A stretch of 64,000 nt of DNA, taken from the IMG/VR virus record IMGVR_UViG_3300045988_122072, positions 32,001 to 96,000 of that record; one strand, given 5' to 3'. The DNA is from a virus. This document shows positions 161 through 15,846 of the stretch, one piece after another. A model generated the notes under the pieces. It saw only the letters and a list, made by a program, of their open reading frames with translations, was not told the DNA's origin and searched no databases. The position numbers and the translations under genes are program-made. Each line of letters begins with the position of its first letter. Position 1 is the stretch's first letter.

Positions 161-2209
161 TTATCCAAATATTTTTTCAATTTGTTTGCGTGGAGTAACA
201 GGTAGCATGTCTATAAGTTTATAATTTGTTGTACGTTTTTTATTACGAATACGCTCTGCACGTTTTTCTGAAAGTGCCCATGCACATAACGCCGCACAAT
301 AGCTTCTATCGTCGTGCAACTTATTTGCTTTTTCTGGTATTAAGTCAAAAGAGTCTTTCCCAGAATCTCTTTTTTTACGAACCATATTCACCATTTCTTC
401 TTTCATTGCATCAATATTTTTCAGTGCAATTTCTTGATATGGATCAAGTTTTACAATTTTTGTTTTAATACAAGAAGATTTTTTCATTTCTTCTTCGACC
501 TTTTGAGCAAATTCTATTTCTGGAATGTTTTGCTTTTTCAGTTCTTCAGAAATGCGTTTCTTCTCTGAATTATATAATTTATCATCGACCTCAAATAACG
601 TTAAATAGCCCTTATTATCATAATCATTCGTGAAACTAATGCAATCAAGATTCATCATTTCAATAAGTGCTTCATATATAATCGACTTATATTGAGTAGG
701 GGAGACAAGCTTTAATTTATTAATAGCATTAGGATATTTACTAACATAATCAGCGCTATATTCCTTATCTATTAAGCCTCTATGTTTATTTCCCTTATCA
801 TCTACCCAATCTTCCATCAGATAGTCAGCAATATTTACGCCGCCACCACCAGAACCAGCATCTATTAAAATTGCTTCTATGTTTTCATAATCTGGAGCGT
901 TTCCATTATAATCCAATATAAGTTCTTTTAAATATTTAATCTGATCTGGTGTCTGCATTGGGCTTTTACGTTTTTTACCAACATCTAATAAATTAACACA
1001 ATTTACAATACGCCCTTTATAATTACCATGTTCGTCAACATAAAGTTCCATTATAAGAATAACGCTATTATCTCTGGAACGAGCAGGGTCATATGCAAAT
1101 ATAAATTTCTTTTTACCCGTATCATTATATAACAACGGGACACGAGTTTCGCTATTACGAGCAATAGTGCCGCGCTTAATAATAGCATTTAGCCCAGCAT
1201 CGGTAGTAAATTCACAATAATACTCACGACGTGCCTTTTCTGGGTTCGTTGCCATTTCGGTTTCAACTGTACTACGCATAAGCAAAGGAGCGATAACCTT
1301 ACCATGCATAGTCGGTTTAAAAGCAACCTCACAATCTATATGAGCAACAAAATAATCTTGGTCTCCCATAAGTTGTCGCTTAGCAAATTCTCTATATAAG
1401 CGATAAAATTCAGTATCAGTACTCGATGCTGAACTAATATAAAATTTTTGGTTTGGAATATTTGTAGGAAATGTACGAAGTCTAATTGGGTCAATAAGAT
1501 TGCCATCTCTGTCTTTACCAGTTTTAAAGCTTTTATTGACAATAGCAAATGCGCCATAAACCTTCATCATTTCTGCCGACAAGAAACCAGATTCATCAAA
1601 TATTACAGTTCCACGCATACCTCTCTTGGCGTCTATATTACTATTTAAAGTTTGAGTCATTGAACCATTATATAAAGAATACGTAAAACCATTGCTTGAA
1701 TGACTGAATCCATCTCCTGCAGCATTTTTAATTTCAACTTCGTGCTTAAAAATATATCCAGTTGAACCAACCATTTCATCAATATTGTCATTTGCCAGAC
1801 GTTCGAGCGTTGTAAATGTTTGTTCAGCCTGTCCGCCTGATCCTGACGCTATATAACTCCAAAAGTTATTGAATAACATACCTTTAGACATAAGAATTAA
1901 ATCAATTACCGTAGATTTTCCTAATCCACGAGTTGCCACAACAAGAACATTTGGGCAATTCCAAGACCTTTGAACTATCCATGCTTGTGCATCAATTAAT
2001 TCTATACCGAAAAAATCACTTATAAATCTAACAGGATTACATTGATAATATTTTTGTAATTCTGCAATTTTTATAAGTGATTCTATTTTACGAGTTGACA
2101 TTGCATATACACCGGGTTTTACATACACAGTGTTACTTTCATTCATTATATCCGAAAGATATCTGTCATTCATTTCATCAATTATTTTGATCTTCATCTG
2201 ACTGCTCAT
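161..2209 (-). CDS. terL: terminase large subunit
   Basis: 682-aa product with Walker A-like ATRGLGKST and Walker B VIFDESGF, followed by a long nuclease-type C-terminal half. GAGGAGG SD 9 nt before ATG 2209 (the track ORF extends to 2230). Confidence 0.85.
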   Translation of the reverse strand: MSSQMKIKIIDEMNDRYLSDIMNESNTVYVKPGVYAMSTRKIESLIKIAELQKYYQCNPVRFISDFFGIELIDAQAWIVQRSWNCPNVLVVATRGLGKSTVIDLILMSKGMLFNNFWSYIASGSGGQAEQTFTTLERLANDNIDEMVGSTGYIFKHEVEIKNAAGDGFSHSSNGFTYSLYNGSMTQTLNSNIDAKRGMRGTVIFDESGFLSAEMMKVYGAFAIVNKSFKTGKDRDGNLIDPIRLRTFPTNIPNQKFYISSASSTDTEFYRLYREFAKRQLMGDQDYFVAHIDCEVAFKPTMHGKVIAPLLMRSTVETEMATNPEKARREYYCEFTTDAGLNAIIKRGTIARNSETRVPLLYNDTGKKKFIFAYDPARSRDNSVILIMELYVDEHGNYKGRIVNCVNLLDVGKKRKSPMQTPDQIKYLKELILDYNGNAPDYENIEAILIDAGSGGGGVNIADYLMEDWVDDKGNKHRGLIDKEYSADYVSKYPNAINKLKLVSPTQYKSIIYEALIEMMNLDCISFTNDYDNKGYLTLFEVDDKLYNSEKKRISEELKKQNIPEIEFAQKVEEEMKKSSCIKTKIVKLDPYQEIALKNIDAMKEEMVNMVRKKRDSGKDSFDLIPEKANKLHDDRSYCAALCAWALSEKRAERIRNKKRTTNYKLIDMLPVTPRKQIEKIFG

Positions 2210-3449
2210 TTTCGGATACCTCCTCGTCAACAGGTTCTATTTCACTAAGAGGGGAGAAGAGTTCATTTAAATTGATAAGATTCTCTTGCGGCAATAAATC
2301 ATGCTCAGACAGCGTATCTTTCAAATCTAAATTTTCTCTCAATAAAATCCTACATATCTCTTTATAATTTTCTCTTTCGCTAGTAAGTTGAGTTACAAGT
2401 TTTCTTTGCTCTGCGACAATATCAGAATATTCAGATTCATCAAGAGCAAGTTGCTTTAAAATAGAAGCATTGCTCAAATCCATAACCTGTTGCATGCCTT
2501 TACATGTTGCAATGTCAAATCCGTTGACTTCTCCCTCACGGAGATTTAATTCTTTAATTTTCTTAATTTTACCAGTCCAAGTATTTTCGCCCTTACTCTG
2601 ATTTTTATTATGTTTTAAACTTAAACAAGATTGTTCTGCCAACAAAGAAACAGTAGAGGCTACATTTTTCTTAGAATCTAAATAAGATTTAATTTCACCA
2701 GATTTATTGGAAACATTTGGAGAAGACATAGCTTTAGCAATCATATCATCTAATTTTGCTTGTTGTAAAAAACCACGAACAATAGTAATTGCGGAAGAGG
2801 TTCTCATCATGTCATCATTTTCTCCACTTGCATCCAAATATCCAATCAACTGAGAGTAGAGTAGTGGTTTATCTTCTTCTTGTTCATGCTCAAAAGGATC
2901 ATATCCAAGTAATCTAACAACGTCTACACGGTTCTTTTCATACTCTTCATTGATTTCTTGATTTTTTGGGCGTTGGTCTTCTGATAATTCCTTACCAATA
3001 TCTTGTTTAGCTTGCTTAATTGCTTCCTCTTTATAATTTGCAAATAAATCTCCATCACGCCAACGCATTGTCTTATATTGTGGCATACTAATATTTTTAA
3101 TATATGCCGCCCATATATTGCTACGTTGCTTTGGATTTTTATCATTTATATACTCAAAATAACTAGAATTCCAAATATTTTCGAGGAAGGGTTTATCAAG
3201 ACGTTCAAGTGCTTCTTGGACGGACGCCTTCGTACAATCGCCATATGTCTTAGTCCTAGCGTTATAATTTCTTGCAATTTTTTCCGCACAGTCCTTACAC
3301 ATTACCGTTTTGCCAGTCATCACAAGTGGGTCAGAGCTCATATAAAAATCTCCAGCTTTTTTAATGGTATTACAATATGGGCATAAGTATTTTTCAATTT
3401 GACAAGCCTTAGAAGTTGCCTTTCTACCCGCACTTTTACCTGTTGCCAT
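2178..3449 (-). CDS. hypothetical zinc-ribbon protein; candidate small terminase/DNA-recognition subunit by position only
   Basis: 423 aa with an N-terminal CPYC-x24-CKDC ribbon and an acidic C-terminus, overlapping the terL start. GGGAGG SD 7 nt before ATG 3449 (the track starts at GTG 3452). Functional call is low confidence. Confidence 0.7.
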   Translation of the reverse strand: MATGKSAGRKATSKACQIEKYLCPYCNTIKKAGDFYMSSDPLVMTGKTVMCKDCAEKIARNYNARTKTYGDCTKASVQEALERLDKPFLENIWNSSYFEYINDKNPKQRSNIWAAYIKNISMPQYKTMRWRDGDLFANYKEEAIKQAKQDIGKELSEDQRPKNQEINEEYEKNRVDVVRLLGYDPFEHEQEEDKPLLYSQLIGYLDASGENDDMMRTSSAITIVRGFLQQAKLDDMIAKAMSSPNVSNKSGEIKSYLDSKKNVASTVSLLAEQSCLSLKHNKNQSKGENTWTGKIKKIKELNLREGEVNGFDIATCKGMQQVMDLSNASILKQLALDESEYSDIVAEQRKLVTQLTSERENYKEICRILLRENLDLKDTLSEHDLLPQENLINLNELFSPLSEIEPVDEEVSENEQSDEDQNN

Positions 3450-3495
3450 CACTCTTCCTCCCTTCTACTTAGCATTTTGTAACGAATATTATATA

Positions 3496-3723
3496 TTATT
3501 CCGTACAAATCTCAACGGATTCATCAGTTGCCTGTTTCTTAAGACTGTCATTCAGCTCTGCAAACGCAGCCTCGAAAGCCTCATCACGTTTAAAAACAAA
3601 AATAGTCTTATCTGGATTTTCTTTAGACTGCTTAATATCTGCAATGGTACATCCAGCGCGTAGTAAACGTCTGGCGCATCCGGGGTTAAAAACTAGCTTA
3701 AAATTCTTTTTAATATCTTCCAT
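3496..3723 (-). CDS. small protein resembling DUF5659-type phage proteins
   Basis: 75 aa starting MEDIKKNF, with AAAGGAGA SD. The segment ARRLLRAGCTIADIKQSKENPDKTIFVFKRD recalls DUF5659 from memory; not searched. Confidence 0.6.
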   Translation of the reverse strand: MEDIKKNFKLVFNPGCARRLLRAGCTIADIKQSKENPDKTIFVFKRDEAFEAAFAELNDSLKKQATDESVEICTE

Positions 3724-3762
3724 TTTATTATGTTCTCCTTTATTTTTTCTTGTTTTCAATAT

Positions 3763-3797
3763 AAAAGCGGCAGTAATTATATATTACTGCCGTTTTA
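3763..3797 (-). terminator. rho-independent terminator after the metallophosphoesterase gene
   Basis: GCGGCAGTAAT-tatat-ATTACTGCCGT stem flanked by A and T tracts (bidirectional shape). Confidence 0.75.
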
Positions 3798-4994
3798 TTA
3801 AAGTTTTATATTATATTCTACGACGTTTCCTTTGCCTTTCTCTAAAACGAATAGGGTAGCACCAGGATCAGACGCTTTATTTAAAGATAACGAATAATCA
3901 TCAACACCTATAATGCTAGGAACACTAATAATATCAGATTCAATTCCGACATTGCTACTTGACTTATGATGCTTGTGTCCACCAATTAAATAATCAATAT
4001 GTACCTTATAAATTCTAGAAAAGTCTTTAATCGCTTGTTCAAGGGACTTTCCTTCACCATGATACCCAAAAATATTATATCCGGCAATTTGATCAAATAC
4101 ATAGCCAGTAGGATTCTGAATGAATTCAAAATTAGGATTATCTCCAAGTCTATCCATAAGCTTATCTGTAATAATATATGATACATTTTCATCCTTGAAT
4201 GTATTTTTAGGTTGTCCCAACATCCTAAGTTGACAATGATTAGAATCTTTCACCATTTGATATCTAACTTTTACATACTTGGTTAATTCATTTAACCACT
4301 CTGTAATAAAACGTCCATATCTCGCGGTGCTTTCGATAACTCCATATCTTAATTTCATAAGTGCAGAGACTCTTAAACATCCCTCAATTTCGTCGCCAAG
4401 ATCATAAACATTTAGTATATCAAAGCCTTCTTTATTACAAATCTGAAGAACTTGATTAAGTAAATTCCACATTCTTTTTTCAAAAATTTCAGGAGAATAT
4501 TCATTTAAAATTTCCCCAAAAAGTCCTTGAATACATAAATCTTTCCCATAATGAGGATCTGCAAAAACTAAGTTTCCAAACCTTGTATTATATTTTGGCT
4601 CAATGACACGAGGAATATCTAGCTTTGGCATTTCTCTAATTGCCTCGGCAATATGTTCTGCGATAAGTTCTTCTCTTGCTTCTTCTCTAAGCCATCTATT
4701 ATATTCCACTTTTTCTGTCTGCAGCTTTTTACGTTCCTTTTCAATGCCTTTACGTTCAGAACGAATTTTTTCAAGATATTCATCTTCTGTAAAAAATGCA
4801 CCTTCATTTGCTTCCATCATTTTATTAAAACTCTGCACTTTTTTTCTATATGCACTCTCACCGTAGTTATATCCAAGAGATTCATTTAATATGTCTGCAA
4901 TATTTTGCCACGTCCATCCTTGTGACTCTTTCATGGAGCATATGCGCAGTATATATTGCTCTTCGTTTTCATTACTTAATTTATCATAACTCAT
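3798..4994 (-). CDS. calcineurin-like metallophosphoesterase with N-terminal helix-turn-helix-like region
   Basis: 398 aa with phosphoesterase motifs FADPHYG (DxH), DLGDEIEG (GD), GYHGEG and GGHKHH (GHxH). GGGGTGG SD. Confidence 0.7.
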   Translation of the reverse strand: MSYDKLSNENEEQYILRICSMKESQGWTWQNIADILNESLGYNYGESAYRKKVQSFNKMMEANEGAFFTEDEYLEKIRSERKGIEKERKKLQTEKVEYNRWLREEAREELIAEHIAEAIREMPKLDIPRVIEPKYNTRFGNLVFADPHYGKDLCIQGLFGEILNEYSPEIFEKRMWNLLNQVLQICNKEGFDILNVYDLGDEIEGCLRVSALMKLRYGVIESTARYGRFITEWLNELTKYVKVRYQMVKDSNHCQLRMLGQPKNTFKDENVSYIITDKLMDRLGDNPNFEFIQNPTGYVFDQIAGYNIFGYHGEGKSLEQAIKDFSRIYKVHIDYLIGGHKHHKSSSNVGIESDIISVPSIIGVDDYSLSLNKASDPGATLFVLEKGKGNVVEYNIKL

Positions 4995-5006
4995 AAAACC
5001 ACCCCA

Positions 5007-5312
5007 TTATTCACCATTAATTCTATATCTAAATGGCTGGCTAAATTTAGCATATGGGATGACTCTTTCTGGTGCCATCAAAGTTGTATTATCATGTGGG
5101 TTTCTTACTTCACGCGGAGCAACTCTACGAGCACCAATTGTAACACCGGGAATTAACTTCATCTCAGCATTTTCATCAAAGTTTGCTTCCTGCATAACGT
5201 CCGTAACTAGCGCCTCTAAAGCAGTCAGAAACTCTTCAATATTATACTTATAAAAGCCTGTACGGTCTGCGAGTTCATTAATTATATCTTGCTTTTTTAG
5301 TATTTTATTCAT
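5007..5312 (-). CDS. HU/IHF-family DNA-binding protein
   Basis: 101 aa. The N-terminus (KQDIINELADRTG...) and the beta-arm (IPGVTIGARRVAPREVRNP...ERVIPYAKFSQ) are typical of HU. AGGAGG SD. Confidence 0.8.
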   Translation of the reverse strand: MNKILKKQDIINELADRTGFYKYNIEEFLTALEALVTDVMQEANFDENAEMKLIPGVTIGARRVAPREVRNPHDNTTLMAPERVIPYAKFSQPFRYRINGE

Positions 5313-5336
5313 TTTTTGTTCCTCCTAATTTGTATT

Positions 5337-5525
5337 TTATTCATAATCCTCATCATACGAAATAGACATAGATACTGGCTTTTCTAGAAAATCTACAAAC
5401 AATCTAGATAATTCAATAAATTCACCAGTATCAGGGTTCTCAATACCAATAATGCCATCCTCGTCTAATCCAAGCACTCCCTTTGCAGAGAGTTTATAAT
5501 TCTTATTAATACTTGCCTTTGCCAT
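5337..5525 (-). CDS. hypothetical protein (62 aa)
   Basis: AGGAGG SD; tightly packed in the minus-strand operon. Confidence 0.65.
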   Translation of the reverse strand: MAKASINKNYKLSAKGVLGLDEDGIIGIENPDTGEFIELSRLFVDFLEKPVSMSISYDEDYE

Positions 5526-5541
5526 ATTATGTTCCTCCTAA

Positions 5542-6252
5542 TCATTCAAGTTCGTCGGCTTTTGTTGAAACAATACCTCTATGATTGGTCGTTAAATGAC
5601 AAATCTGTGCATATGGTTCATCTTTGAAATGTTCAATATATTTAACAAAACCACTATTTTCTGGATGGTGGTACAAATCACATTGTCCACTATGTCCGAT
5701 TACAATAGTTTTAGAAGTATCAGAAATTCTTGTTAAAACCTTTTTTAATTCATCTGTATACATATTTTGTGATTCTTCAATAATAACAACTTTATTTTCT
5801 AAATTGCATCCTCTTAGATAAACATGAGAAATGCAATCAATATATCCAGTTCCATTCTTTTGATTTTCTACTCCTTCTTGGATGACAGAAGTAAATGGAT
5901 TAATTCCAAGCTTCGCAAGTGCATCATATAATGGAGTAGTGTAAATAGATACTTTTTCATCAGCGCTACCCGGAAGAAATCCAAGTTTTTCTTCCTGAAC
6001 AGGGCTAACTATATACACGATGCCATCATACTCGCCATGTTGCACTAAAAGATTTGCAGCAGCTACAGCCATTAACGTCTTGCCTGTACCAGCTCTCGCG
6101 TTCGCAAATACGATTAATTTATCTGGATTCAAAATGGCATTTACAAATTCCTTTTGCTCGTTATCTAATTTAAGACCATAAAAAGGGTGCCCTTCAACAG
6201 TTTTTGGGGCGTCCCCGTACTCATTTGTAACAGTCTTTTTCTTTGTAGCCAT
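5542..6252 (-). CDS. phoH: PhoH-like ATPase
   Basis: 236 aa with Walker A ARAGTGKT and the PhoH-type Walker B/Q motif VVIIEESQN. GGAGGG SD. Confidence 0.8.
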   Translation of the reverse strand: MATKKKTVTNEYGDAPKTVEGHPFYGLKLDNEQKEFVNAILNPDKLIVFANARAGTGKTLMAVAAANLLVQHGEYDGIVYIVSPVQEEKLGFLPGSADEKVSIYTTPLYDALAKLGINPFTSVIQEGVENQKNGTGYIDCISHVYLRGCNLENKVVIIEESQNMYTDELKKVLTRISDTSKTIVIGHSGQCDLYHHPENSGFVKYIEHFKDEPYAQICHLTTNHRGIVSTKADELE

Positions 6253-6266
6253 ATAGTCCCTCCAAA

Positions 6267-6881
6267 TTATAGAATTTCATCAATATCTTTAATAATTCCA
6301 TCAACCATGCCAAGAGTAACAGCCTCTTCACATGTGATATACCATTCTGTACTCTTTTTTTTATTAAAAGTCTTAGAGTCAATGGATGTTTTATCTAAAA
6401 TATAATTTCTCATCTTGTCAACAAGGGCTTTATATTGTTTCATTTGCTCAGTTGTTTGCTCAAATGAACCACCACAGCCACCACTTCCGCTATGAAGCAA
6501 ATAATTAGTATTTGGCATAGCAAAACGCTTATGTCCAGATAATGCAATTAAACATGCTGCGGAATATGCCCATCCCATATTAACAGTTATAATTGGTGTC
6601 TTACTGGTTTCTACAAGTCCAACAAAAGACAATGTATCTTCTAATGTACCGCCAGGAGAATTAATAAATATCTTAATTGGCTTTCTATCCTCTGGTGGAG
6701 TACCTTTGTCTTCTCTGTTCCAATTCATAATCAGCTTTGATGCTTCAAATAGACTTTCATCAATTTCGCCCTCGATCCAAATACTACGATTTTCTACATC
6801 CTTATAGAACTGTAGGAGTTCTGGGTTTGGCAACGAAAGATTCTCAATTGAATTTGGAATTGCGATTGCTAATTGTTCCAT
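6267..6881 (-). CDS. clpP: ClpP-family serine protease
   Basis: 204 aa. INSPGG, GWAYSAACLI (Ser position) and LLHSGSGG (His position) align with the ClpP core. GGGAGG SD. Confidence 0.8.
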   Translation of the reverse strand: MEQLAIAIPNSIENLSLPNPELLQFYKDVENRSIWIEGEIDESLFEASKLIMNWNREDKGTPPEDRKPIKIFINSPGGTLEDTLSFVGLVETSKTPIITVNMGWAYSAACLIALSGHKRFAMPNTNYLLHSGSGGCGGSFEQTTEQMKQYKALVDKMRNYILDKTSIDSKTFNKKKSTEWYITCEEAVTLGMVDGIIKDIDEIL

Positions 6882-6978
6882 GTTTTGTACCTCCCTGTTG
6901 TGTGTTTTATTTAATAAAATATAAGCTTTTTTCTTATATCATTACTATTTTGTTCTAACTTTAGTTTACTGAAATGCC

Positions 6979-7007
6979 AAAAATGCAAGAGAATTCCTTG
7001 CATTTTT
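6979..7007. terminator. bidirectional AT-rich terminator hairpin after the GIY-YIG gene
   Basis: AAAAATGCAAG-agaattc-CTTGCATTTTT, a perfect 11-bp stem. Confidence 0.6.
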
Positions 7008-7038
7008 GACATTAATTTTGTGTTGTCAAATTAACAAA

Positions 7039-7758
7039 TCACTTCACATTTTTATTGTACCATCGCTTTTGCCTCTCTCTATTAATCAATTTGTTATGCT
7101 CTGTTTGACATTTTTCACATCTACAAATTGCTGTTGCCAATGGATTAATAACTACATCAATTCCACAATCAATACAAACAATCACTTTATTTTGAGCTGG
7201 CGCACGCTTTCTGCAATCTTCACATCTTTTAATTTTATTAGAATATGGGATCTTCTTAGTATGAGATTTGTTCCACTTTAATTTAATTTCAAATAATGCT
7301 CCGCATTGTGAACACTTTCTTATGGCAGGATCTCCATTGTTAAATCTTTCTTGATATTTTTCAAAAGACTGCTCTTTATGCCTTCTTCTTATTGTATTTT
7401 GCATAGAAGAAATTTGCTTTAATATAGAAGATTTAGAACGAATATGATTCTCTCCGCCAGATTTTAAATTATATCCCTTATCTGGATTTGTAGTTTCTAA
7501 TTTTTCTATTAATAATTCTTCAAAATGATTAGCTTCTTCCTGAGTTAAATTTGAAGCAATGACTTCATGCTCAAAATTATCCCAACCATATTTTTGAATA
7601 GCATGATAAAAATATGAAGATAATTCATACCCTAATCCATTGCGCCAACGTTTATTTGGATCGTCTCCATATTTCGTTTGTCCAACATATTTTTTTTCAT
7701 TTATCTTATTAATATGCATATAAACACAATAAGTATCATTGTAAATTTCCATTATCAC
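7039..7758 (-). CDS. GIY-YIG homing endonuclease-like protein with C-terminal zinc ribbons
   Basis: YCVYMH...KKYVGQT (GIY-YIG), RWRNG, YGWDNFEHEVI. C-terminal CSQC...CEDC...CIDC...CEKC. Start is GTG 7758 or ATG 7752. Confidence 0.8.
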   Translation of the reverse strand: MIMEIYNDTYCVYMHINKINEKKYVGQTKYGDDPNKRWRNGLGYELSSYFYHAIQKYGWDNFEHEVIASNLTQEEANHFEELLIEKLETTNPDKGYNLKSGGENHIRSKSSILKQISSMQNTIRRRHKEQSFEKYQERFNNGDPAIRKCSQCGALFEIKLKWNKSHTKKIPYSNKIKRCEDCRKRAPAQNKVIVCIDCGIDVVINPLATAICRCEKCQTEHNKLINRERQKRWYNKNVK

Positions 7759-8635
7759 TCATTGCAACCCTCCTATTTTTCATCATCGCATTTCTCTGAT
7801 ATTCTAACTGCTTTTGATGTTGGCATTCTTCACATCTACAACTTCTCTTATTAGAAGATGCTACAATAAAATGAGTTCCACATTCAATACATTCAATTTC
7901 TTTAGTACCCATTGGTTCATAATTTTCTCTATGAATACCGCAATATTGCATAGCATTATTTCTTACACGGAACCATCTTCCGCACGCCTTACATCTTTTA
8001 TATCCACCATTTTTATAATTCAAAAATGCATAAGCAAGTTCCAAATAATCATATTCATCAAGCGTAAGAATAACTTCGCCCTCATCATGATCTACAAAAG
8101 CGGCAGTCAAGGCATTATAACCTATGCTAAAATTCTGTTTGAGCAATCCTTCCTTATATGCAAACCCAAAATATAAATCTCTATCTTTAGCTGGAATAAC
8201 AACCCTTGCAAACTTAAATATTTCAGAAGTCTTTGCATAGAATGTATCATTATCTCTTTGACTTTCGGCATTTTGATATTTTGCTAATGCTAAAATGACA
8301 AATGCAATTTTTTCTTTCCTTATATCATTTAAAGACATAATTTTGTCCATTTCTCTTTTTGTAATATTAATAGTATTTACATCTTTAATTTTATATTTAT
8401 AAGCCTTATTAATATCCTTATTAATGGTATTTATATACCCCTGATACATAAAACCATTATAATTTTGAGCCATAAAGTCAACAATTTTCCAAAATACATC
8501 ATTCTTATCTGCAGGATTTAATTGTGTATAATAAATTGCTGCATTCCAAATTGCTTGAGTTATACTAACTCCATCAATATTTTTATCCTCTATAATGCTA
8601 TAAATCCTACTTTTTTCATTAAAATTAAATCTCAT
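7736..8635 (-). CDS. hypothetical protein with C-terminal zinc-ribbon module
   Basis: 299 aa with GGAGGTGA SD. The C-terminal CKACG...CIECG...CRCEECQHQKQLEYQR resembles the C-terminus of the neighbouring GIY-YIG protein. Confidence 0.75.
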   Translation of the reverse strand: MRFNFNEKSRIYSIIEDKNIDGVSITQAIWNAAIYYTQLNPADKNDVFWKIVDFMAQNYNGFMYQGYINTINKDINKAYKYKIKDVNTINITKREMDKIMSLNDIRKEKIAFVILALAKYQNAESQRDNDTFYAKTSEIFKFARVVIPAKDRDLYFGFAYKEGLLKQNFSIGYNALTAAFVDHDEGEVILTLDEYDYLELAYAFLNYKNGGYKRCKACGRWFRVRNNAMQYCGIHRENYEPMGTKEIECIECGTHFIVASSNKRSCRCEECQHQKQLEYQRNAMMKNRRVAMSDNGNLQ

Positions 8636-11471
8636 CTATAATTTCACCTCCAATTCTAATAGTTTTATTAGAAAATTTCGTACCACAACAACAAAAATCT
8701 GCATTTTCACTCTTTTCTGGATATGTAAGAGTATTATCATGTTTTTCTAACATATTTTTAATAATTTGAGTACCGCAAACATCCCAAACTATAGTTTTAC
8801 TCATTTTCCCAGTATAACAAATATCTAATAAAATATCACAAAGAGACTCTTCATTCGGGCAAATAGACGTCATATCTTCTATGAGAGTTTCGAGAAGTCT
8901 GTCTTTGTCCTCTAATAATATCTTTCTTTCTTCTTCATTATTAATTTTTCTACTATTTAAAGCCTTCAAATTCATTAAATAATGCTCGCACAAACCTTTT
9001 ATTTCTGCATAAGAGCTTCTTCTTACATTATTTTTTGATTTATAAATACTATAGTCAAATTCTAATTCTTCACAAGAAAAATTTCCGTCAAATTTCTCTT
9101 CTATTTTTCTACAAATACGATTCATAGTAGAAGGAGACATATCAATAGGGCATTTTGCAGAACAATATTGAACAAATTTAGCCTCATCTTCACTTAAATT
9201 ATCCATTTTTAGCATATCTTCAAACGAAATACCATATAGACCAATTGATTTTGAATTAACTTCTTCAATAAATTTTTGATAATTAATTCTTTCTGTATCG
9301 TAGTTATACATAAAGAAATACGGCTTTTTATTTGCACAAATTGTTTGATTAAATGCTTTTTTCTCTTGAATTTCCTCAGAATCATCAGGCTTTATGATAT
9401 TTGCGCCATATTGATACCATTCTTTTGGCATCGGAATAGGTAAAATCCCCTTTGCTTTATCAATTTCTCTTTGTTGCAGTGCTTGACCACATTGAGTTCT
9501 ATATCTTAATGTTTCATATTCTTTACTATTTGGGGCATAATTTGCCATCAAACTTGTCATTTGTGTAATTTTATTTGTTATGGAACCAATTTTACTGCCA
9601 AATCCAGCCTTATTTGAAGCAATTATATCCTCTTCTTTAACTACTTTTTTAGGAGCCTTTGTCTGTATACAATTCAATGCAGGAAGATTAGTTTGTCTTC
9701 TTATCAATGACACATTATTTGTTGTAAATAATAAATCACCATCAAAATCAAAGCCATTTAATGCAGCGGGCATTGTGTCCCACCCATTTACAACTATACA
9801 AGTATCAATATATTGAAACCAATCAAGAGCTTTTTTATCTTTACATATATTTTGAGCAACTATAGAATGAGCATTACTCATTGGAGCTCTAAAACAAAGA
9901 ACTCTATCTACGCCTTCATCATACCAATATTTACTATAAATTTCACCAGCCTTTAAAATTCCATGTGGTTCCAGCCCAAACATACTTTCACAAAGGGCAT
10001 ATAAATCCCCAGAAAGGATTTGGAAGTTCCCATGCAGATCCAAAACGCCAATTTTAGCATCTTTTATTCGTCTATTTATCATTTTTTTGATTTTTGAGCG
10101 AATATAAGGATCATTTATAGCAATTTTATCAATCATAAGCGCTTTTGCAATATTTTCAGCAAAGATTACATTTTTCTCATTTAATCCCTTGCCACATAAA
10201 TATGCAACGCTTTTTCTTGGATCTAACTCCATAATATCTTTAATTTCATTAACTGTTAGTGCAATAAGCTCATCTATATCATCATCTGTAAGGTCTAAAG
10301 ACTGTATAAATTGATAATTTAATTGCCTTATATCATCATTTTCTTCTTCAGATGTCTTTGTAACTCTTAAAGTATAATGATTCGCAATACATTTTTCATA
10401 ATAATCTTCCCATGAAGAATAACTGCCGCACAACTTAAGCTGGCTTTCAGTTAATATTAAATCAGCATCGCGTATATCTCTTTCTTTCCCCCAATAATCT
10501 TTAATTAAATACTTTTCTGGATGTTCTGCAGACGCACCAATAATTTCTTCTGCGAATCTAATAAAATCAAAAGTAAGAGCCATGCCTTTTGTAAAAGCAC
10601 AACGCATATTACATCCGCTCATTGTATGTTCTGAGTTTCCATTTAGCTCTCCATTCCACCTTTTAGACAAGTGGGGGAGCATCATTGAACATCCATCCGA
10701 CATATTATTTTCAAAATCTTCATTATGTTTTTCTGTTACTTTTGGTTCTACCGTTGGATCACTGTCATCTATTTCAATAAAATTCGTCTTAAAATGAACA
10801 ACACAGTCTTTTACAACAATAATGCCTCCGGGAATATTACTTTCACGAGATCTAGGCCAGCTAACTGGGATTGATGCACTAGCGGCAAGTGATTCATAGG
10901 CTCCATACTTAGCAGGAGAGAGCTTTACATCTGTATTTCTGCCATTTGCTATGCGTCTCTTTAACTCATCATGAATATTTACACTTTGCCCATTGTACTC
11001 AACGAATCTATCTGCGGCATATACAACACTGGATGTTTTTACTCCATTGGTAGTGCAAATCAATCTTTTATATGCAATTCCATTTACTTTAAACCCTTTA
11101 TTTGCTCTATCATAATCAGACTTTTTATCAAAAACCACACATAAATAGTCCTTTTTGAACTGTAAATCATATAATTCTGTATATTTTTCTGAAACTTTTT
11201 TCTTATTGTCATCACTATTTGGCTGTTTTTTAATTTCTTTTATGTCTTTTTTAATTTGTTTTGCTCTTGAATCATAATCCTCGGTTCCATTTAGCTCATT
11301 AATCCAAGTTAAAATTTGCGAATCAGCCAAAGAAACAACAACCCCAGGAATTTTTCTTGCGTCTGACAATGGTAATTCTAATTCCCAATTATTTTGCTTG
11401 AGCAGACTTGAATTAATTTTATATATATACTGTTGTGTTTTTTGCTGTTTTGCCAAACGCACCGCCTCCAA
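8625..11471 (-). CDS. YonO/cellular-RdRP-like single-subunit RNA polymerase (candidate)
   Basis: 948-aa ORF. RVLCFRAPMSNAHSIV is followed about 45 aa later by NGFDFDGDLLF, the DxDGD metal-binding signature of two-barrel RNA polymerases. GAT TTT GAT GGT GAT lies at 9735-9749 (minus). There is no ATG at the 5' end: candidates are TTG 11471, GTG 11462 and TTG 11456 (the last with GGAGG 7 nt upstream). Confidence 0.6.
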   Translation of the reverse strand: MEAVRLAKQQKTQQYIYKINSSLLKQNNWELELPLSDARKIPGVVVSLADSQILTWINELNGTEDYDSRAKQIKKDIKEIKKQPNSDDNKKKVSEKYTELYDLQFKKDYLCVVFDKKSDYDRANKGFKVNGIAYKRLICTTNGVKTSSVVYAADRFVEYNGQSVNIHDELKRRIANGRNTDVKLSPAKYGAYESLAASASIPVSWPRSRESNIPGGIIVVKDCVVHFKTNFIEIDDSDPTVEPKVTEKHNEDFENNMSDGCSMMLPHLSKRWNGELNGNSEHTMSGCNMRCAFTKGMALTFDFIRFAEEIIGASAEHPEKYLIKDYWGKERDIRDADLILTESQLKLCGSYSSWEDYYEKCIANHYTLRVTKTSEEENDDIRQLNYQFIQSLDLTDDDIDELIALTVNEIKDIMELDPRKSVAYLCGKGLNEKNVIFAENIAKALMIDKIAINDPYIRSKIKKMINRRIKDAKIGVLDLHGNFQILSGDLYALCESMFGLEPHGILKAGEIYSKYWYDEGVDRVLCFRAPMSNAHSIVAQNICKDKKALDWFQYIDTCIVVNGWDTMPAALNGFDFDGDLLFTTNNVSLIRRQTNLPALNCIQTKAPKKVVKEEDIIASNKAGFGSKIGSITNKITQMTSLMANYAPNSKEYETLRYRTQCGQALQQREIDKAKGILPIPMPKEWYQYGANIIKPDDSEEIQEKKAFNQTICANKKPYFFMYNYDTERINYQKFIEEVNSKSIGLYGISFEDMLKMDNLSEDEAKFVQYCSAKCPIDMSPSTMNRICRKIEEKFDGNFSCEELEFDYSIYKSKNNVRRSSYAEIKGLCEHYLMNLKALNSRKINNEEERKILLEDKDRLLETLIEDMTSICPNEESLCDILLDICYTGKMSKTIVWDVCGTQIIKNMLEKHDNTLTYPEKSENADFCCCGTKFSNKTIRIGGEIIDEI

Positions 11472-11480
11472 ACCACAAAA

Positions 11481-11720
11481 TTATTCGCCAACTTCTCTTA
11501 TTTCATAACAATTTTCACAATATTTATTACCATTTTCAACTTCTACATATGTTCCACAGAGCCAGTCATTACATCCATCACATTTATATGTTTCTGCATA
11601 GGCTCCACCACAAGATGGGCACCCATCCCATTCTTCATATGGAGGGGAGTCCAAACCGTGTGTTTCTATCCAATGTTTAGGCTCGTCAAAAACACATCCA
11701 CAATCCAAGCAAATAAACAT
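11481..11720 (-). CDS. small multi-CxxC zinc-ribbon protein
   Basis: 79 aa starting MFICLDCG, with CLDC, CPSC, CDGC and CENC pairs. GGTGGTGA SD before ATG 11720 (the track ORF starts at 11735). Confidence 0.65.
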   Translation of the reverse strand: MFICLDCGCVFDEPKHWIETHGLDSPPYEEWDGCPSCGGAYAETYKCDGCNDWLCGTYVEVENGNKYCENCYEIREVGE

Positions 11721-11741
11721 AATTATCACCACCATCCAAAA

Positions 11742-12086
11742 TTACTCAACCGTCATTGTCATAAGATTTCCATTTTGATCTGAAATGCCAATAAAACTTA
11801 TATTTGTCGTTAATGATTTATTAGATATATAACTTGCAACCTTACCATTATGAGAATAACAATCAACCGTATCTGTTGACATTTCAATTGTATTCAATAT
11901 TGGTTTTACTAATTGAGTAATATATACTTGTTGGCCATTCATATTTGTACGTATTTTCAAATAAAATAGTTCACCACTTTCAAAATCAACGGCACTCATA
12001 TCATAATAAGAAGTCCCACAATACGGGCATTTATTCTTATCAATATCATATGGAGCTCCGCAATTAGGGCAGTTTCTTCTTCGCAT
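11742..12086 (-). CDS. hypothetical protein with N-terminal zinc ribbon
   Basis: 114 aa with CPNCG...CPYCG. AAGGAG SD 7 nt before ATG 12086. Confidence 0.7.
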   Translation of the reverse strand: MRRRNCPNCGAPYDIDKNKCPYCGTSYYDMSAVDFESGELFYLKIRTNMNGQQVYITQLVKPILNTIEMSTDTVDCYSHNGKVASYISNKSLTTNISFIGISDQNGNLMTMTVE

Positions 12087-12097
12087 CAAACCACTCC

Positions 12098-12394
12098 TTA
12101 ATAGGCTGCTTCTTCTTTAATAAATTTTAAAATTTCTTTTGCGCAACCATCATCATCTGTATGGCACTCAAAGCATCTAAACGTAGTCGCACAATCATGA
12201 TATACGAGCTTAGAAAACCAAGATGCAAGCTCTTCATCAGACATAGAACGAAATTTATCACCATTCGTCATTGGAACTTCAATTTCACCAGTTCCATTAC
12301 ATTCAAAACATTTTTCACTCCAGATGGAGCAACTATTAAATTTTGAAATAAAACCATGCCCATCACAAGCAGGGCAATTAATTTTCTTTTTCAT
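12098..12394 (-). CDS. small protein with DnaJ-type CxxCxGxG zinc finger
   Basis: 98 aa with CPACDGHG and CFECNGTG. GAGGTGA SD. Confidence 0.7.
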   Translation of the reverse strand: MKKKINCPACDGHGFISKFNSCSIWSEKCFECNGTGEIEVPMTNGDKFRSMSDEELASWFSKLVYHDCATTFRCFECHTDDDGCAKEILKFIKEEAAY

Positions 12395-12402
12395 AATTCA
12401 CC

Positions 12403-12798
12403 TCAACCAAATTGATATTCTACATGACCGCATCTATCACAACAATATTCATATTTCGCAGGATAAGAAGTTAGCACTACCATTTCATTGCGACGCATAC
12501 CGCCTTTATGACATTTAGGGCAAATATACTTTGGTTCTGACCATTCTTGTGGATAGCACATAGAATCTTCAATAAATTTACGATATTCATCCGCAGTAGG
12601 GAGCCCTGTATTTAATTCACTCACAGATACATCACCGGTATTTTTACAATAAATAATTTGCAATGTCTTCATATCAGTGGTCGTAGTAGTGGTTACAGTC
12701 TTATTAATAGGAAAATCATTATTCTGACAATTCTCACAAGGGTTAATGATACTCCAATATGGCCCGTTATATGGACAATTCTCACATAATTTATTCAT
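12403..12798 (-). CDS. small multi-CxxC zinc-ribbon protein
   Basis: 131 aa with CENC, CENC, CPKC and CDRC. GGAGG SD. Confidence 0.7.
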   Translation of the reverse strand: MNKLCENCPYNGPYWSIINPCENCQNNDFPINKTVTTTTTTDMKTLQIIYCKNTGDVSVSELNTGLPTADEYRKFIEDSMCYPQEWSEPKYICPKCHKGGMRRNEMVVLTSYPAKYEYCCDRCGHVEYQFG

Positions 12799-12803
12799 AT
12801 ATT

Positions 12804-12902
12804 TTACCTCCGTATATTTTTTAAATTATTTTTATCAAAACGGTTAATAGCGAAAAGTCCTACAATAAATGCTAGAACAATCACGCATACTTCTAAAGAC
12901 AT
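12804..12902 (-). CDS. 32-aa putative membrane peptide
   Basis: MSLEVCVIVLAFIVGLFAINRF... GGAGG SD 7 nt upstream. Its stop overlaps the SD of the next gene. Below the ORF-track cutoff. Confidence 0.35.
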   Translation of the reverse strand: MSLEVCVIVLAFIVGLFAINRFDKNNLKNIRR

Positions 12903-13031
12903 AATAAAACCTCCAAAATTTAATCATTATACAATTGAAATACAATACTAATTTAAATATCAATACATGCACCCATGAGTTTATACTATTAAAATTTTCA
13001 TTTGAATTAATATTGTATTGTAATAAAAATA

Positions 13032-13304
13032 TTACTTATTTCTGCTTGCCTGTAGACGAGCGGCAATTGCAGCCCTTTGCTCATCTGATAGATTTACCTG
13101 CTTAGGAGGAGAAACCTTAATCCAAGACTTAGGCACCTCAAACTTCGACATTTCATCTGAACTACGAATAACATGAATATCCGGATTCACACCAACAAGT
13201 TTATTAAGCTTATTTTTCAAAGCTTTGTTGAAAGTATAAACAGAAGCAGTCTTTTCTTCTTCGTTAAAATTAATAATTGTTTCGCGTTCATAAGATGTTA
13301 ACAT
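13032..13304 (-). CDS. hypothetical protein (90 aa)
   Basis: GGAGG SD; co-oriented with its neighbours. Confidence 0.65.
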   Translation of the reverse strand: MLTSYERETIINFNEEEKTASVYTFNKALKNKLNKLVGVNPDIHVIRSSDEMSKFEVPKSWIKVSPPKQVNLSDEQRAAIAARLQASRNK

Positions 13305-13345
13305 AGATATACAACCTCCATTAATATCATATTATTCTTACTTCT

Positions 13346-13771
13346 TTAATCCCACAACGAAAAGAAGTATTCGCTAAAGAGTTTAAAAAACTCATTTTTA
13401 GCATTTGTCTGTGTTTCATATTCTGTTTTCCAATCCATATTGTCATAAATTTCATTATTTTCGTCCATTTTATCAAGAAGGTCAATCATTTTATCAAGGA
13501 TAGTATCATATGCCTTTTCATTTTCTTCACTCCATGTTTCGTAATCATTGAATTCAACAACACATGGACTACCGAGTCTATTATGACGATAATTTATTAA
13601 AATCTCTCGCATCATATCTATAAAATATGCAAAGGTTTCCCATTTGGCAACAGGAGAGTAGCCATGCTTGAGCGTAAAGAAAATGCGTTTAAAAAGAATA
13701 TGGATATCTCTGAAATTTTTCCAGAAATACTTACCACGGTACATAAAAAGGCCACAAGTAATTTTATTCAT
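13346..13771 (-). CDS. hypothetical protein (141 aa)
   Basis: GGAGGA SD 6 nt before ATG 13771 (the track starts at TTG 13777). Confidence 0.65.
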   Translation of the reverse strand: MNKITCGLFMYRGKYFWKNFRDIHILFKRIFFTLKHGYSPVAKWETFAYFIDMMREILINYRHNRLGSPCVVEFNDYETWSEENEKAYDTILDKMIDLLDKMDENNEIYDNMDWKTEYETQTNAKNEFFKLFSEYFFSLWD

Positions 13772-13773
13772 AG

Positions 13774-14094
13774 TCAATCCTCCATTTTACGCATATCATC
13801 ATTGAACCTCTTTTCTGTAGCTTCAACATCTGCCAAAACATCCTCTTTTGTCTTACCAAGCTTCTTGATGGTGCGTTCAATTGTATCTTTGGCCCAAACT
13901 GCTAGATTGTCCCAGCCAACGCACCAAACAATACCTACAATATCACTATAAGGCTCTAGACCTTCTTTCAAACATTCTTCACAATAAGCAGAACTGCAAG
14001 AACTTAGTGTAGATGCCGCAACGGCCACAGGAGCTTCCTTACCACATACTTCACAAGTGCCCATATGGGCAACATCATTAAATGTCTTTTTCAT
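13774..14094 (-). CDS. hypothetical protein with CxxC pairs (106 aa)
   Basis: CEVCG ... CEEC; co-oriented and tightly packed. Confidence 0.65.
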   Translation of the reverse strand: MKKTFNDVAHMGTCEVCGKEAPVAVAASTLSSCSSAYCEECLKEGLEPYSDIVGIVWCVGWDNLAVWAKDTIERTIKKLGKTKEDVLADVEATEKRFNDDMRKMED

Positions 14095-14185
14095 TATAAT
14101 TCAACCTTCCCTTATCAAATTTAATTTCTCCATGTATGTTTTTGTCTCTTAGATTCTTTAGTTCATCAGCATCAATTGGGCGCAT
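14078..14185 (-). CDS. 35-aa truncated member of the IDA-x-EL paralogue family
   Basis: MRPIDADELKNL... matches the N-termini of the next three genes. GGAGGG SD. Overlaps the next gene start. Confidence 0.35.
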   Translation of the reverse strand: MRPIDADELKNLRDKNIHGEIKFDKGRLNYNEKDI

Positions 14186-14188
14186 TAG

Positions 14189-14437
14189 TCAGCCCTCCAG
14201 TTCACCATACTTGCAGAAAAATTCTGAATCGTCTGGGCATTTCGTTTTGAGCACCCAGCAGTAGATATAATATTCTCCTTCATCATGATATTTGCAGTCC
14301 TTACACCGTACTACAGGTACAGCATCTACGGTAGGTGCTGTATCAATGCAATAAAATGTCGTTTCCTTATCATCATATTCACCGAAGTGTTCATTCTCAA
14401 TAGTGTCTCTTAGCTCATTAGCGTCAATCAGCCGCAT
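14189..14437 (-). CDS. small Cys-rich protein, IDA-x-EL paralogue family
   Basis: 82 aa starting MRLIDANELRD, with GGAGGTGA SD 5 nt before ATG 14437. C-terminal CKDCKY...C...C. Confidence 0.65.
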   Translation of the reverse strand: MRLIDANELRDTIENEHFGEYDDKETTFYCIDTAPTVDAVPVVRCKDCKYHDEGEYYIYCWVLKTKCPDDSEFFCKYGELEG

Positions 14438-14723
14438 CACCGTCACCTCCGTCCATCTTCGCGCCGCATCGCCAGCAATATCCGCCTATAATTGCCGTAT
14501 GCGGGTTTTCGTGTGCACCGCATTTTGAGCACTCAAAATATTTGCCCACAGGTACCGTTTTCTCAATCCACCGCCCATGTCTCACCGGGGCCACATCGGC
14601 AACGGGTGCATTTTTAATTCGCTGGATTGCGTCTTCTGTTCTATCTCTTTGATATGGATATTCGACAGATTTCAGCCATTCAAATTCTGCAAGCAACGCT
14701 TCCCGATCTATATATTCAGGCAT
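14424..14723 (-). CDS. small zinc-ribbon protein, paralogue family (DVAPVRHGRW)
   Basis: 99 aa starting MPEYIDREALL. Shares VAPVRHG(R/H)W and a C-terminal CxxCGAKMDG with 14716-14991. Confidence 0.65.
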   Translation of the reverse strand: MPEYIDREALLAEFEWLKSVEYPYQRDRTEDAIQRIKNAPVADVAPVRHGRWIEKTVPVGKYFECSKCGAHENPHTAIIGGYCWRCGAKMDGGDGDAAD

Positions 14724-14991: not shown

Positions 14992-15004
14992 ATTTAAGCA
15001 CCTC

Positions 15005-15247: not shown

Positions 15248-15277
15248 TTTCTGTACCTCCATTAATTTTGTACTGTT

Positions 15278-15305
15278 ATTATAACACATTTTCCCAATTT
15301 GTCAA
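15278..15305 (-). promoter_or_regulatory. sigma-A type promoter (TTGACA-16-TATAAT, TG-extended)
   Basis: Minus strand reads TTGACAaattgggaaaatgtgtTATAAT, then acagtACAAAATTAAtGGAGG. Confidence 0.6.
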
Positions 15306-15309
15306 TAGG

Positions 15310-15672
15310 TTATAGCTCATCAAAATCATCTTCCTGTAGTGCTCTTTGTACAGTTCTTAGACTACAGCCAAGCGCATTTGCGATTTCTTGATTATCCATG
15401 CCCTGTTCATTTAGTTCTTTAATTTTGTCACTTGAGTATTTTGGCTGCCTTCCTTTTGCTTTAAGGGCAGAATTATATCTTTCCTTTGCTTTATTCATAC
15501 TGCACTCAATAGCTCCTTTAATAATTGCTTGAATCATTGGATCGTCTGTAGTAATTTCTCCAGATGTACCAAAAGACATAATTTGCCATAAAATTTCTTT
15601 TGCAGTAGTTTCATCAAAACCCTCTATCAATGTTCTCCATTTGCCATAGAATACAAAATTTTCATATTCCAT
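15310..15672 (-). CDS. helix-turn-helix DNA-binding protein, first gene of leftward arm
   Basis: 120 aa with a C-terminal HTH (DNQEIANALGCSLRTVQRAL). GAGGAGG SD. A consensus promoter lies just upstream. Confidence 0.7.
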   Translation of the reverse strand: MEYENFVFYGKWRTLIEGFDETTAKEILWQIMSFGTSGEITTDDPMIQAIIKGAIECSMNKAKERYNSALKAKGRQPKYSSDKIKELNEQGMDNQEIANALGCSLRTVQRALQEDDFDEL

Positions 15673-15710
15673 TTTTCACACCTCCTCATTAATTTTGTTT
15701 TGTTGAGTGG

Positions 15711-15739
15711 ATTATATCATAGGATGTAAAATTTGTCAA
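15711..15739 (-). promoter_or_regulatory. sigma-A type promoter of the leftward arm
   Basis: Minus strand reads cTTGACAaattttacatcctatgaTATAAT (17-nt spacer), followed by leader box 15689-15698. Confidence 0.7.
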
Positions 15740-15819: not shown

Positions 15820-15846
15820 TTAATATAAATAATAATAATAATATAA

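Follow-up and report, generated by a model that had tools for sequence, protein, structure and literature searches.

A probable YonO-family RNA polymerase and its linked zinc-ribbon companion gene in a large SPbeta-like gut phage

We analyzed a 64,000-nucleotide (nt) stretch of viral DNA, positions 32,001 to 96,000 of IMG/VR record IMGVR_UViG_3300045988_122072 (hereafter the window, with coordinates counted from its first base). The source virus is a large SPbeta-like gut phage. One open reading frame (ORF) on the minus strand of this window, at 8625-11471, very probably encodes an RNA polymerase (RNAP) of the YonO family that transcribes phage DNA. A second gene, encoding a 299-amino-acid (aa) zinc-ribbon protein, overlaps the polymerase stop codon and accompanies the polymerase gene in nearly all related loci, which makes its product a tentative candidate for an initiation factor. 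To our knowledge, no smaller relatives of cellular RNAPs are known than the YonO-type enzymes, and YonO of the Bacillus subtilis prophage SPbeta is the only member that has been studied. YonO is a demonstrated DNA-dependent RNAP made of a single polypeptide whose aspartate triad is needed for activity (Forrest et al. 2017, PMC5467207).

Identity of the polymerase

The polymerase gene and its predicted catalytic elements lie as follows.

8625..11471, minus strand: gene for a YonO-family single-chain two-barrel RNAP (ORF, Pfam, BLASTP, hhalign, AlphaFold2, Foldseek)
10584..10697, minus strand: first-barrel motif, residues 259 to 296 (D259 G260 ... R290 ... K295 G296), predicted source of basic residues (invariant or near-invariant columns; profile match to solved RNA-dependent RNA polymerases [RdRPs])
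9858..9896, minus strand: codons of CFRAPMSNAHSIV, residues 526 to 538, with invariant R528 and P530 (alignment columns; aligns with LRSPHLF of YonO)
9735..9749, minus strand: codons of DFDGD (D575, D577, D579), the predicted metal-binding triad of the second barrel (invariant Asp; aligns with DNDGD of YonO)

The encoded protein matches the Pfam family RdRP (PF05183) over residues 117 to 635 (E value of 7.5e-15; 55.1 bits against a gathering score of 23.8), and the same match is precomputed for near-identical public proteins. BLASTP aligned residues 185 to 638 with SPbeta YonO at 28% identity (E value of 2e-30), placing DFDGD opposite DNDGD. When the family profile was compared with YonO by hhalign, the probability was 100 and the E value 2.4e-57; against a profile of 22 YonO-clade sequences, the alignment was global, pairing residues 1 to 948 of the polymerase with residues 1 to 827 of YonO over 789 columns (E value of 1e-120). 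The family profile also matched solved eukaryotic RdRPs in the first-barrel motif DG.G...R...KG (RDR2, 7eu0, E value of 7.9e-5; QDE-1, 2j7n, E value of 3e-3). A first-pass annotation, made from the bare sequence, had proposed this ORF as a candidate single-subunit polymerase of the YonO/RdRP type, and the above-threshold Pfam match and the hhalign comparisons bear that proposal out.

An AlphaFold2 model computed from the family alignment had a mean predicted local distance difference test score (pLDDT) of 94 and a predicted template modeling (TM) score of 0.89, with beta-rich segments at about residues 217 to 300 and 478 to 601. Among the 50 matches listed from a Foldseek comparison with the PDB, the top 21 were structures of RDR2 and QDE-1 (E values of 1.5e-17 to 1e-11, probability of 1.00, about 900 columns, TM scores of 0.4 to 0.5), followed by the two-barrel RNAPs of Thermus phages (E value of 5e-6). 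These structural matches support a predicted architecture of two double-psi beta-barrels in one chain. The barrel that had been expected around residues 520 to 600 is in keeping with this outcome: profile comparison led to YonO, structural comparison led to RDR2 and QDE-1 as the best PDB matches, and neither led to an unrelated family. The crAss-like gp66 (6VR4) was not among the 50 Foldseek matches listed.

No Pfam RNA_pol_Rpb1 or RNA_pol_Rpb2 match, as would mark a polymerase of the multisubunit beta/beta-prime type, was found in the protein, and Foldseek aligned it with cellular largest subunits only at E values of at least 0.25 and probabilities of at most 0.18. T7-type RNAPs appeared neither among its Pfam matches nor among the 50 Foldseek matches listed. 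A phmmer search of the polymerase against the PDB returned no match, NCBIfam has no model that matches it, nor one for YonO itself, and a megablast search of 25 kb against the phage collection was also empty. Neither a sigma factor nor any other RNAP subunit was recognized among the 41 larger window ORFs scanned against Pfam. The earlier remark that no other subunits are visible was incomplete in passing over the conserved 299-aa ORF at the polymerase stop codon.

Relatives of the polymerase are numerous. When 1.84 billion cluster representatives were searched exhaustively, 1661 (as 50%-identity clusters) were recovered at E values of 1e-3 or below, mostly 900 to 940 aa long. A tblastn search of 50,697 phage records matched 38 records, led by Clostridium phage c-st (37% identity, 96% coverage), then six Enterocloster phages (~36%), Bacillus phage BUCT082 (29%), and the SPbeta group, in which the matched gene was yonO. 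Three PHROG families of unknown function match the polymerase, two of them corresponding to its halves (residues 7 to 577 and 600 to 933). Near-identical metagenomic proteins already bear the label "RNA-dependent RNA polymerase [Caudoviricetes sp.]," and YonO-like polymerases are established in caudoviruses (PMC5467207; PMC7824862). Since those proteins carry the RdRP label and c-st has been cited as YonO-like, we regard the polymerase as an ordinary further member of a known family.

Start codon and catalytic residues

The length of 948 aa is counted from the first TTG of the ORF. A second TTG, at 11456, sits 7 nt past GGAGG and would give a product of 943 aa, which equals all public gene calls for near-identical proteins; this is probably the true start. 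We keep the 948-aa numbering, in which NGFDFDGDLLF begins at residue 572; in the 943-aa numbering, DFDGD is residues 570 to 574. The 948-aa ORF, both motifs, and the DFDGD codons all lie exactly where the first-pass annotation had placed them.

A pattern of D.DGD occurs a single time in the six-frame translation of the entire window, and D.D.D occurs nine times. By itself, the DFDGD pentapeptide is weak evidence, and it gains weight from the family-level homology of the protein that contains it. Conservation was assessed by aligning 95 sequences, including 88 representatives of 50%-identity clusters, with a separate check on 102 full-length representatives. D575, D577, and D579 were invariant in both sets. 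The other invariant columns of the 95-sequence alignment were K188, Y192, D259, G260, K295, G296, K346, Y386, Q387, R528, P530, G629, N633, R658, D671, and K674, and R290 was conserved at 98%. The invariance of R528 and P530 and their alignment with LRSPHLF of YonO agree with the earlier suggestion that the R-x-P segment follows the RdRP/YonO layout. The suggestion that DxDGD forms the metal-binding loop fared well for the aspartates, which align with the triad of YonO, but not for the glycine: G578 is replaced by S, A, F, Y, L, or M in 29 of the 102 full-length representatives. Because this glycine is not conserved, the defining signature is DxDxD, as given in the literature (PMC7824862).

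Comparison with YonO and other two-barrel polymerases

The polymerase shares with YonO full-length homology, the Asp triad, the R-x-P segment, and the first-barrel motif, and both genes head a same-strand operon with homologues of HU, YonJ, YonG, and terminase. Like SPbeta, the window phage has a replication module of the Pol III alpha type. The two enzymes differ in that the window polymerase is ~105 residues longer, has another N terminus, and carries an extra helical insert near residues 690 to 770. The C terminus of YonO is a canonical zinc ribbon, whereas the equivalent mini-domain of the window polymerase is degenerate, with CCC where YonO has CC.C and with the second cysteine pair unmatched; the consensus of the broader family has no cysteines there. 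Finally, the window clade has the separate 299-aa partner gene, which was not found beside yonO, and the ~1.2- to 1.4-kb untranslated leader that precedes yonK in SPbeta contrasts with a 157-nt intergenic region in the window.

Among cultured relatives, c-st (CST179/CST178 plus CST177; 37% identity) and Enterocloster phage PMBT24 (36%) come closest, with 84 to 96% coverage; the c-st protein has already been named YonO-like (PMC7824862). The polymerase gene of c-st is split at DMD|GD, annotated as separate ORFs, and flanked by insertion sequence elements, whereas the window copy is unbroken. The Thermus phage P23-45 gp64 and P74-26 gp62 and the crAss-like phi14:2 gp66 resemble the window enzyme in being single polypeptides with two barrels and a DxDxD loop. 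The structural match to the Thermus enzymes (8f72 and 8f5m) is much weaker, however (TM score of 0.25), with no match at the sequence level. Polymerases of the Thermus and crAss-like kind transcribe early genes, and some are packaged in the virion. Single-chain two-barrel phage RNAPs of this kind have been described (bioRxiv 10.1101/2022.12.01.518664).

The eukaryotic RdRPs (QDE-1 and plant RDR2; PF05183) are like the window enzyme in the overall fold of the model and in the first-barrel and DxDxD motifs. They differ in sequence (11 to 15% identity) and in context, as the window enzyme comes from a double-stranded DNA phage and groups with the DNA-dependent YonO. QDE-1 and RDR2 act in RNA silencing. 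Given that these RNA-dependent enzymes are the best structural matches and that the Pfam family is RdRP, we considered RNA-templated action, by which the enzyme might, for example, copy or amplify transcripts of the phage or its host or produce double-stranded RNA. This seems very improbable, as the polymerase is far closer to YonO (E value of 1e-120), which uses DNA templates, than to the eukaryotic RdRPs (E value of 8e-5), and its gene heads a late operon as in SPbeta. Moreover, one of the matched QDE-1 structures (PDB 7y7r) contains a DNA template, according to its title. We therefore favor a DNA-templated enzyme. Homology, fold, catalytic residues, and gene order are supported directly, whereas DNA-templated activity and a role in late transcription are carried over from YonO. 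The 3D>3N mutant of YonO is inactive (PMC5467207), and RNA synthesis by the window enzyme would likewise depend on its Asp triad.

A linked zinc-ribbon protein

The gene that follows the polymerase gene, here called the partner, is the following feature.

7736..8635, minus strand: partner gene, 299 aa, with a helical region (possible winged-helix fold), two zinc ribbons, and a basic C-terminal helix (homology, linkage, AlphaFold2)

The two genes share 11 nt, at the polymerase stop and the partner start, and on account of this overlap the partner is expected to be made together with the polymerase. It is homologous to c-st CST177 (E value of 1e-19) and to the ORF that overlaps the polymerase stop in PMBT24 (E value of 8e-7). 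To survey the linkage, ORFs of 160 related loci from viral and genome collections, gathered with a 15-sequence alignment and spanning 38 to 98% polymerase identity, were searched with a partner profile. A partner match was present in 157 of the 159 loci with a polymerase match, and among the ~154 loci with at least 900 nt of downstream sequence, all but about two had the homologue directly downstream on the same strand. The commonest arrangement of the two genes was a 4-nt overlap (53 loci). Cultured phages that carry the pair are c-st, PMBT24, and BUCT082. Such conserved linkage is a pattern typical of proteins that act together. The partner is not mentioned in the literature that we found (open-access papers).

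The AlphaFold2 model of the partner had a pLDDT of 84, and the ribbon cysteines C215/C218/C232 and C249/C252/C268/C271 are conserved. Its zinc-ribbon module (residues 213 to 290) is homologous to the C terminus of the adjoining GIY-YIG endonuclease (E value of 2e-7), itself a double zinc ribbon. In the homing endonuclease I-TevI, the corresponding part binds DNA. This homology suggests that the partner also binds DNA. Searches of the partner against BFVD matched only uncharacterized phage proteins, and a sequence profile search of the PDB returned only zinc-finger patterns.

We also considered whether the partner might be the C-terminal part of YonO in separate form, as the c-st record's label for CST177 would have it. 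Similarity between the partner and YonO residues 733 to 824 was found by BLASTP and hhalign (E values of 0.006, 9e-4, 2.6e-5, and 3.6e-6). However, the global profile alignment pairs YonO residues 745 to 827 with the polymerase's own C terminus, where Y886 and W896 are conserved. We rejected the similarity as evidence of fusion, and a generic zinc-ribbon resemblance remains.

Gene neighborhood and the presumed late operon

The window falls into two blocks. The minus-strand block, at about 1 to 19.8 kb, holds the polymerase gene, and the plus-strand block holds genes for AAA_24, DnaB-like, RecJ-like DHH, and Pol III alpha proteins, two tyrosine recombinases, and adenylosuccinate synthetase. Downstream of the polymerase, the following features share its strand.

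7039..7758, minus strand: free-standing GIY-YIG homing-endonuclease-like gene, an insertion, variable among relatives, that separates the partner from the conserved intergenic region and late genes (Pfam GIY-YIG)
6882..7038, minus strand: conserved 157-nt intergenic region after the polymerase unit, candidate boundary or start of the late operon (alignment with 10 relatives)
161..6881, minus strand: downstream same-strand genes, presumed late operon (Pfam and PHROG matches; SPbeta order)
6267-6881, minus strand: ClpP-like protease (Pfam/PHROG)
5542-6252, minus strand: PhoH (Pfam/PHROG)
5007-5312, minus strand: HU-like protein (Pfam/PHROG)
3798-4994, minus strand: YonJ-like exonuclease (Pfam/PHROG)
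2178-3452, minus strand: YonG-like protein (Pfam/PHROG)
161-2230, minus strand: large terminase (Pfam/PHROG)

The full order 3' of the polymerase is the partner, GIY-YIG, ClpP-like, PhoH, a 62-aa ORF, HU-like, YonJ-like, an 87-aa ORF, YonG-like, and terminase. In an identical contig of 163,290 bp in the ENA, genes of this series are annotated with the Pfam families Bac_DNA_binding, YonJ_N/YonJ_CC, and YonG_N. The SPbeta order yonO-yonN(HU)-yonK-yonJ matches, and the order is conserved in the window clade. In both PMBT24 and c-st, the polymerase gene is followed by the ORF that overlaps its stop and then by an HU-like gene, and in PMBT24 terminase and portal come next. YonO is needed for transcription of the SPbeta late operon and is highly processive (PMC5467207), and gene order suggests that the window polymerase may be required for its late operon in the same way.

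Gene order also bears on the idea that the enzyme makes short RNAs, for priming DNA replication or for counter-defense, without transcribing late genes. The window does contain a full replication module (DnaB, Pol III alpha, and RecJ-like proteins), and no primase was recognized among the ORFs scanned. Yet the polymerase gene lies outside that module, in the opposite-strand block near the packaging genes, the synteny with the YonO late operon is kept, and high processivity of the YonO kind would ill suit such a role. We give this idea very little credence and retain late-gene transcription as the expected function.

Strong Shine-Dalgarno sites and many perfect TTGACA/TATAAT promoters occur in the window, and the strength of the former together with the sigma-A type of the latter suggests a Bacillota-like host. 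Relatives of the polymerase come from genomes of Clostridia and Paenibacillus as well as from contigs that had been assigned by binning to Prevotella or Gastranaerophilales.

Promoters and the intergenic motif

Upstream of the polymerase gene, one further feature was located.

15278..15739, minus strand: two perfect sigma-A-type promoters (TTGACA, 16- to 17-nt spacer, TATAAT, with TG) (consensus scan, 12/12 matches)

These promoters, at 15739-15711 and 15305-15278, precede the minus-strand string of genes that leads into the polymerase gene, and we infer that they may drive the polymerase operon via the host enzyme. The stretch upstream of the polymerase gene, at 11481-15865 on the minus strand, contains about 12 small ORFs (58 to 143 aa), at least five of which are cysteine-rich with CxxC pairs (zinc-ribbon-like); no function match was found for them.

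The 157-nt intergenic region carries the motif ACAACACAAAATTAA at 7026-7012, followed by a T-run hairpin (7008-6978) and then by another conserved block, around AATAGTAATGATATAAG. This region, in which ACAAYACAAAATTAA precedes the hairpin and that block, is conserved in relatives whose polymerases are just 54 to 86% identical. In the alignment with 10 relatives, ACA..ACAAAAT is invariant and compensatory changes preserve the hairpin. The motif lies 13 to 28 nt past the partner stop in 24 of 26 clade loci; of the three loci that do not have it at that spot, two have a GIY-YIG gene after the partner.

The 15-nt motif ACAATACAAAATTAA has ~27 copies in the window at up to 2 mismatches, and at up to 3 mismatches 41 copies were observed against 12 expected. 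Examples lie at 7026-7012, 15021, and 15276 on the minus strand and at 21232, 32485, 38104, 46108, 56090, and 62290 on the plus strand. Most copies are intergenic, oriented with the gene, and 0 to 25 nt upstream of ribosome-binding sites; exceptions include those at 12942 and 36470, whose orientation relative to the nearest gene is ambiguous, and at 35076, inside an ORF. Perfect TTGACA/TATAAT promoters stand directly before some copies but not before others; copies without a sigma-A promoter include those at 7026, 13021, and 15021 on the minus strand and at 21232, 25427, 26112, 29151, 32485, 38104, and 39306 on the plus strand. The motif is conserved among clade relatives and absent from distant clades. 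It could be a promoter of the phage polymerase, a 5'-leader element, or a regulator site. A search of 14-kb loci of distant clades for a clade-specific repeated motif that co-varies with the polymerase brought out nothing. A perfect sigma-A-type promoter and a copy of ACAATACAAAATTAA also stand just upstream of two tRNA-like genes on the plus strand (62341-62464 and 62473-62590; 48.7 and 42.6 bits with the Rfam tRNA model). Both have insertions, of 59 and 57 nt, in place of the 7-nt anticodon loop, and ARAGORN finds no tRNA in them; a weak Y RNA-like (YrlA) match over 62418-62526 scored 26 bits, under threshold.

Motif discovery by expectation maximization in the 300 nt after the partner, over 110 non-redundant loci, produced a T-rich, TATAATG-like motif, ATTTTTCtTATaATGAA. 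In two-fold cross-validation, the best match of the whole locus fell in this interval in 28 of 110 loci, against 1.4 expected. The motif was found in many distant clades, often after a hairpin, and examples inspected by eye had no properly spaced -35 box. Within the family, this motif may act as a late-promoter element. As a universal late promoter that would also serve the window, however, it was rejected: it scores 6 bits in the intergenic region, and 160 window positions score at least that. Published primer-extension primers place the YonO start site 260 to 500 nt after yonN, ~1.2 to 1.4 kb before yonK, and ATTTTTCtTATaATGAA does not score in the interval that they bracket. The long SPbeta leader contains the Rfam DUF3800-VIII RNA; these SPbeta features lie at locus positions 7745-7987 and 8844-8909. 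In c-st, the HU gene is immediately preceded by a RAGATH-18 RNA (c-st locus 11923-11983). Neither RNA has a counterpart in the window, and an Rfam search of window positions 1 to 20500 returned no structured RNA.

A proposed mechanism and the role of the partner

We propose that the host polymerase would make the YonO-type enzyme from the upstream sigma-A-type promoters at 15.3 to 15.7 kb. In the enzyme, the second barrel would supply the metal-binding loop D575-x-D577-x-D579 and the first barrel the basic residues R290 and K295. The enzyme would then transcribe phage DNA into RNA, its main target being the same-strand structural and packaging operon just downstream, from ClpP through HU, YonJ, YonG, and terminase and on leftward beyond the window. 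The co-produced partner might assist it as a DNA-binding factor for initiation or promoter specificity, a role that we consider conceivable but short of an even chance. Whether YonO needs extra initiation factors was left open by the work on that enzyme (PMC5467207).

A bolder version holds that the long (~930-aa) branch of the YonO family is a two-protein transcription system, with the partner as the missing initiation factor and ACAATACAAAATTAA as part of the promoter in the window clade. Under this proposal, polymerase molecules starting at ACAATACAAAATTAA would read through a hairpin that would stop the host polymerase. We think this unlikely as a whole.

A serious competitor, with a fair claim but not one that we would back as probable, is that the YonO-type polymerase works alone and that the 299-aa protein is an unrelated DNA-binding protein (a regulator, a packaging or recombination accessory, or a mobile-element remnant) that shares its operon. 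In vitro, the YonO polypeptide works singly and unaided on scaffolds (PMC5467207), a partner profile found no match in the 11-kb SPbeta locus (HMMER), YonO itself has no partner-like region, and the partner's zinc ribbons resemble those of a homing endonuclease. On the other hand, adjacency, strand, and the stop/start overlap are kept across the surveyed loci despite polymerase divergence to 38% identity and changing surroundings, and the YonO work leaves room for such a factor.

Several points weigh against the mechanism that we propose. The partner has no recognizable transcription-factor fold: Foldseek against the PDB returned nothing significant (best E value of 0.27), and the low-probability matches were winged-helix regulators. 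It has no family annotation in PHROGs, Pfam, or NCBIfam, and no counterpart in YonO, because the C-terminal ribbon of YonO corresponds to the polymerase's own C-terminal mini-domain. With no such counterpart, and with YonO working in vitro unaided, the argument for its role is one of gene linkage. No promoter of the phage polymerase was identified in the window. The polymerase shares only 28% of residues with YonO, and PF05183 takes its name from RNA-dependent enzymes, which leaves DNA as the presumed rather than the proven template. Support for this protein and its clade comes from sequence and model comparison. We nonetheless hold to transcription of phage DNA by a YonO-family enzyme as the probable function, with assistance by the partner as the more tentative part.

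Probable introns in relatives and mobile elements at the locus

The GIY-YIG gene between the partner and the intergenic region is present in some close relatives (L008 and L088) and absent in others. In c-st, a 317-nt insert (locus 7630-7946) breaks the polymerase gene precisely where DMD meets GD in the catalytic loop; the insert matches the Rfam group I intron model at 25.4 bits (E value of 2e-4 in a local search), below the gathering score. It is probable that CST179 and CST178 are two exons of a single gene. A second insertion site lies after residue 670-671, inside the invariant I-D-K motif, in six loci (L029, L030, L031, L089, L164, and L165) whose polymerases are 45 to 67% identical to that of the window. 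The inserts there are 230 to 1120 nt long, and at the junction the reading frame changes and a stop occurs; the L029 insert (7969-8996) contains a GIY-YIG ORF and a weak group I match of 22 bits. By these sequence comparisons, relatives appear to carry introns inside invariant catalytic motifs, although the group I matches are weak; the window gene is uninterrupted. Several Enterocloster phage polymerase genes are likewise in two to three pieces.

Other regions of the window stood out in their own right. The strand-switch region at 18000-24000 has a G+C content of 0.43 to 0.44, against ~0.33 elsewhere, and this stretch holds a 604-aa ORF with no family match (21793-23607) and an M20/M28 peptidase-like ORF (23617-24534). 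Adjacent tyrosine-recombinase genes (Phage_integrase; MrpR-like) lie within the replication block at 35464-37389 on the plus strand, and such a pair would fit a phage that is temperate or lives as a plasmid prophage, like c-st.

Implications

For annotation, "DNA-directed RNA polymerase, YonO family" would be a better label for this gene and its near-identical relatives than "RNA-dependent RNA polymerase," a routine change in itself. The long branch of the YonO family is common, with 1661 50%-identity clusters in all, and the related loci were drawn from viral contigs as well as from genomes of Clostridia, Paenibacillus, and gut metagenomes. In this branch, the near-invariant companion gene is a concrete candidate for the initiation mechanism of YonO-type enzymes. 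If the polymerase and its partner do form a two-protein system, this would answer the question left open for YonO of how such polymerases find their promoters.

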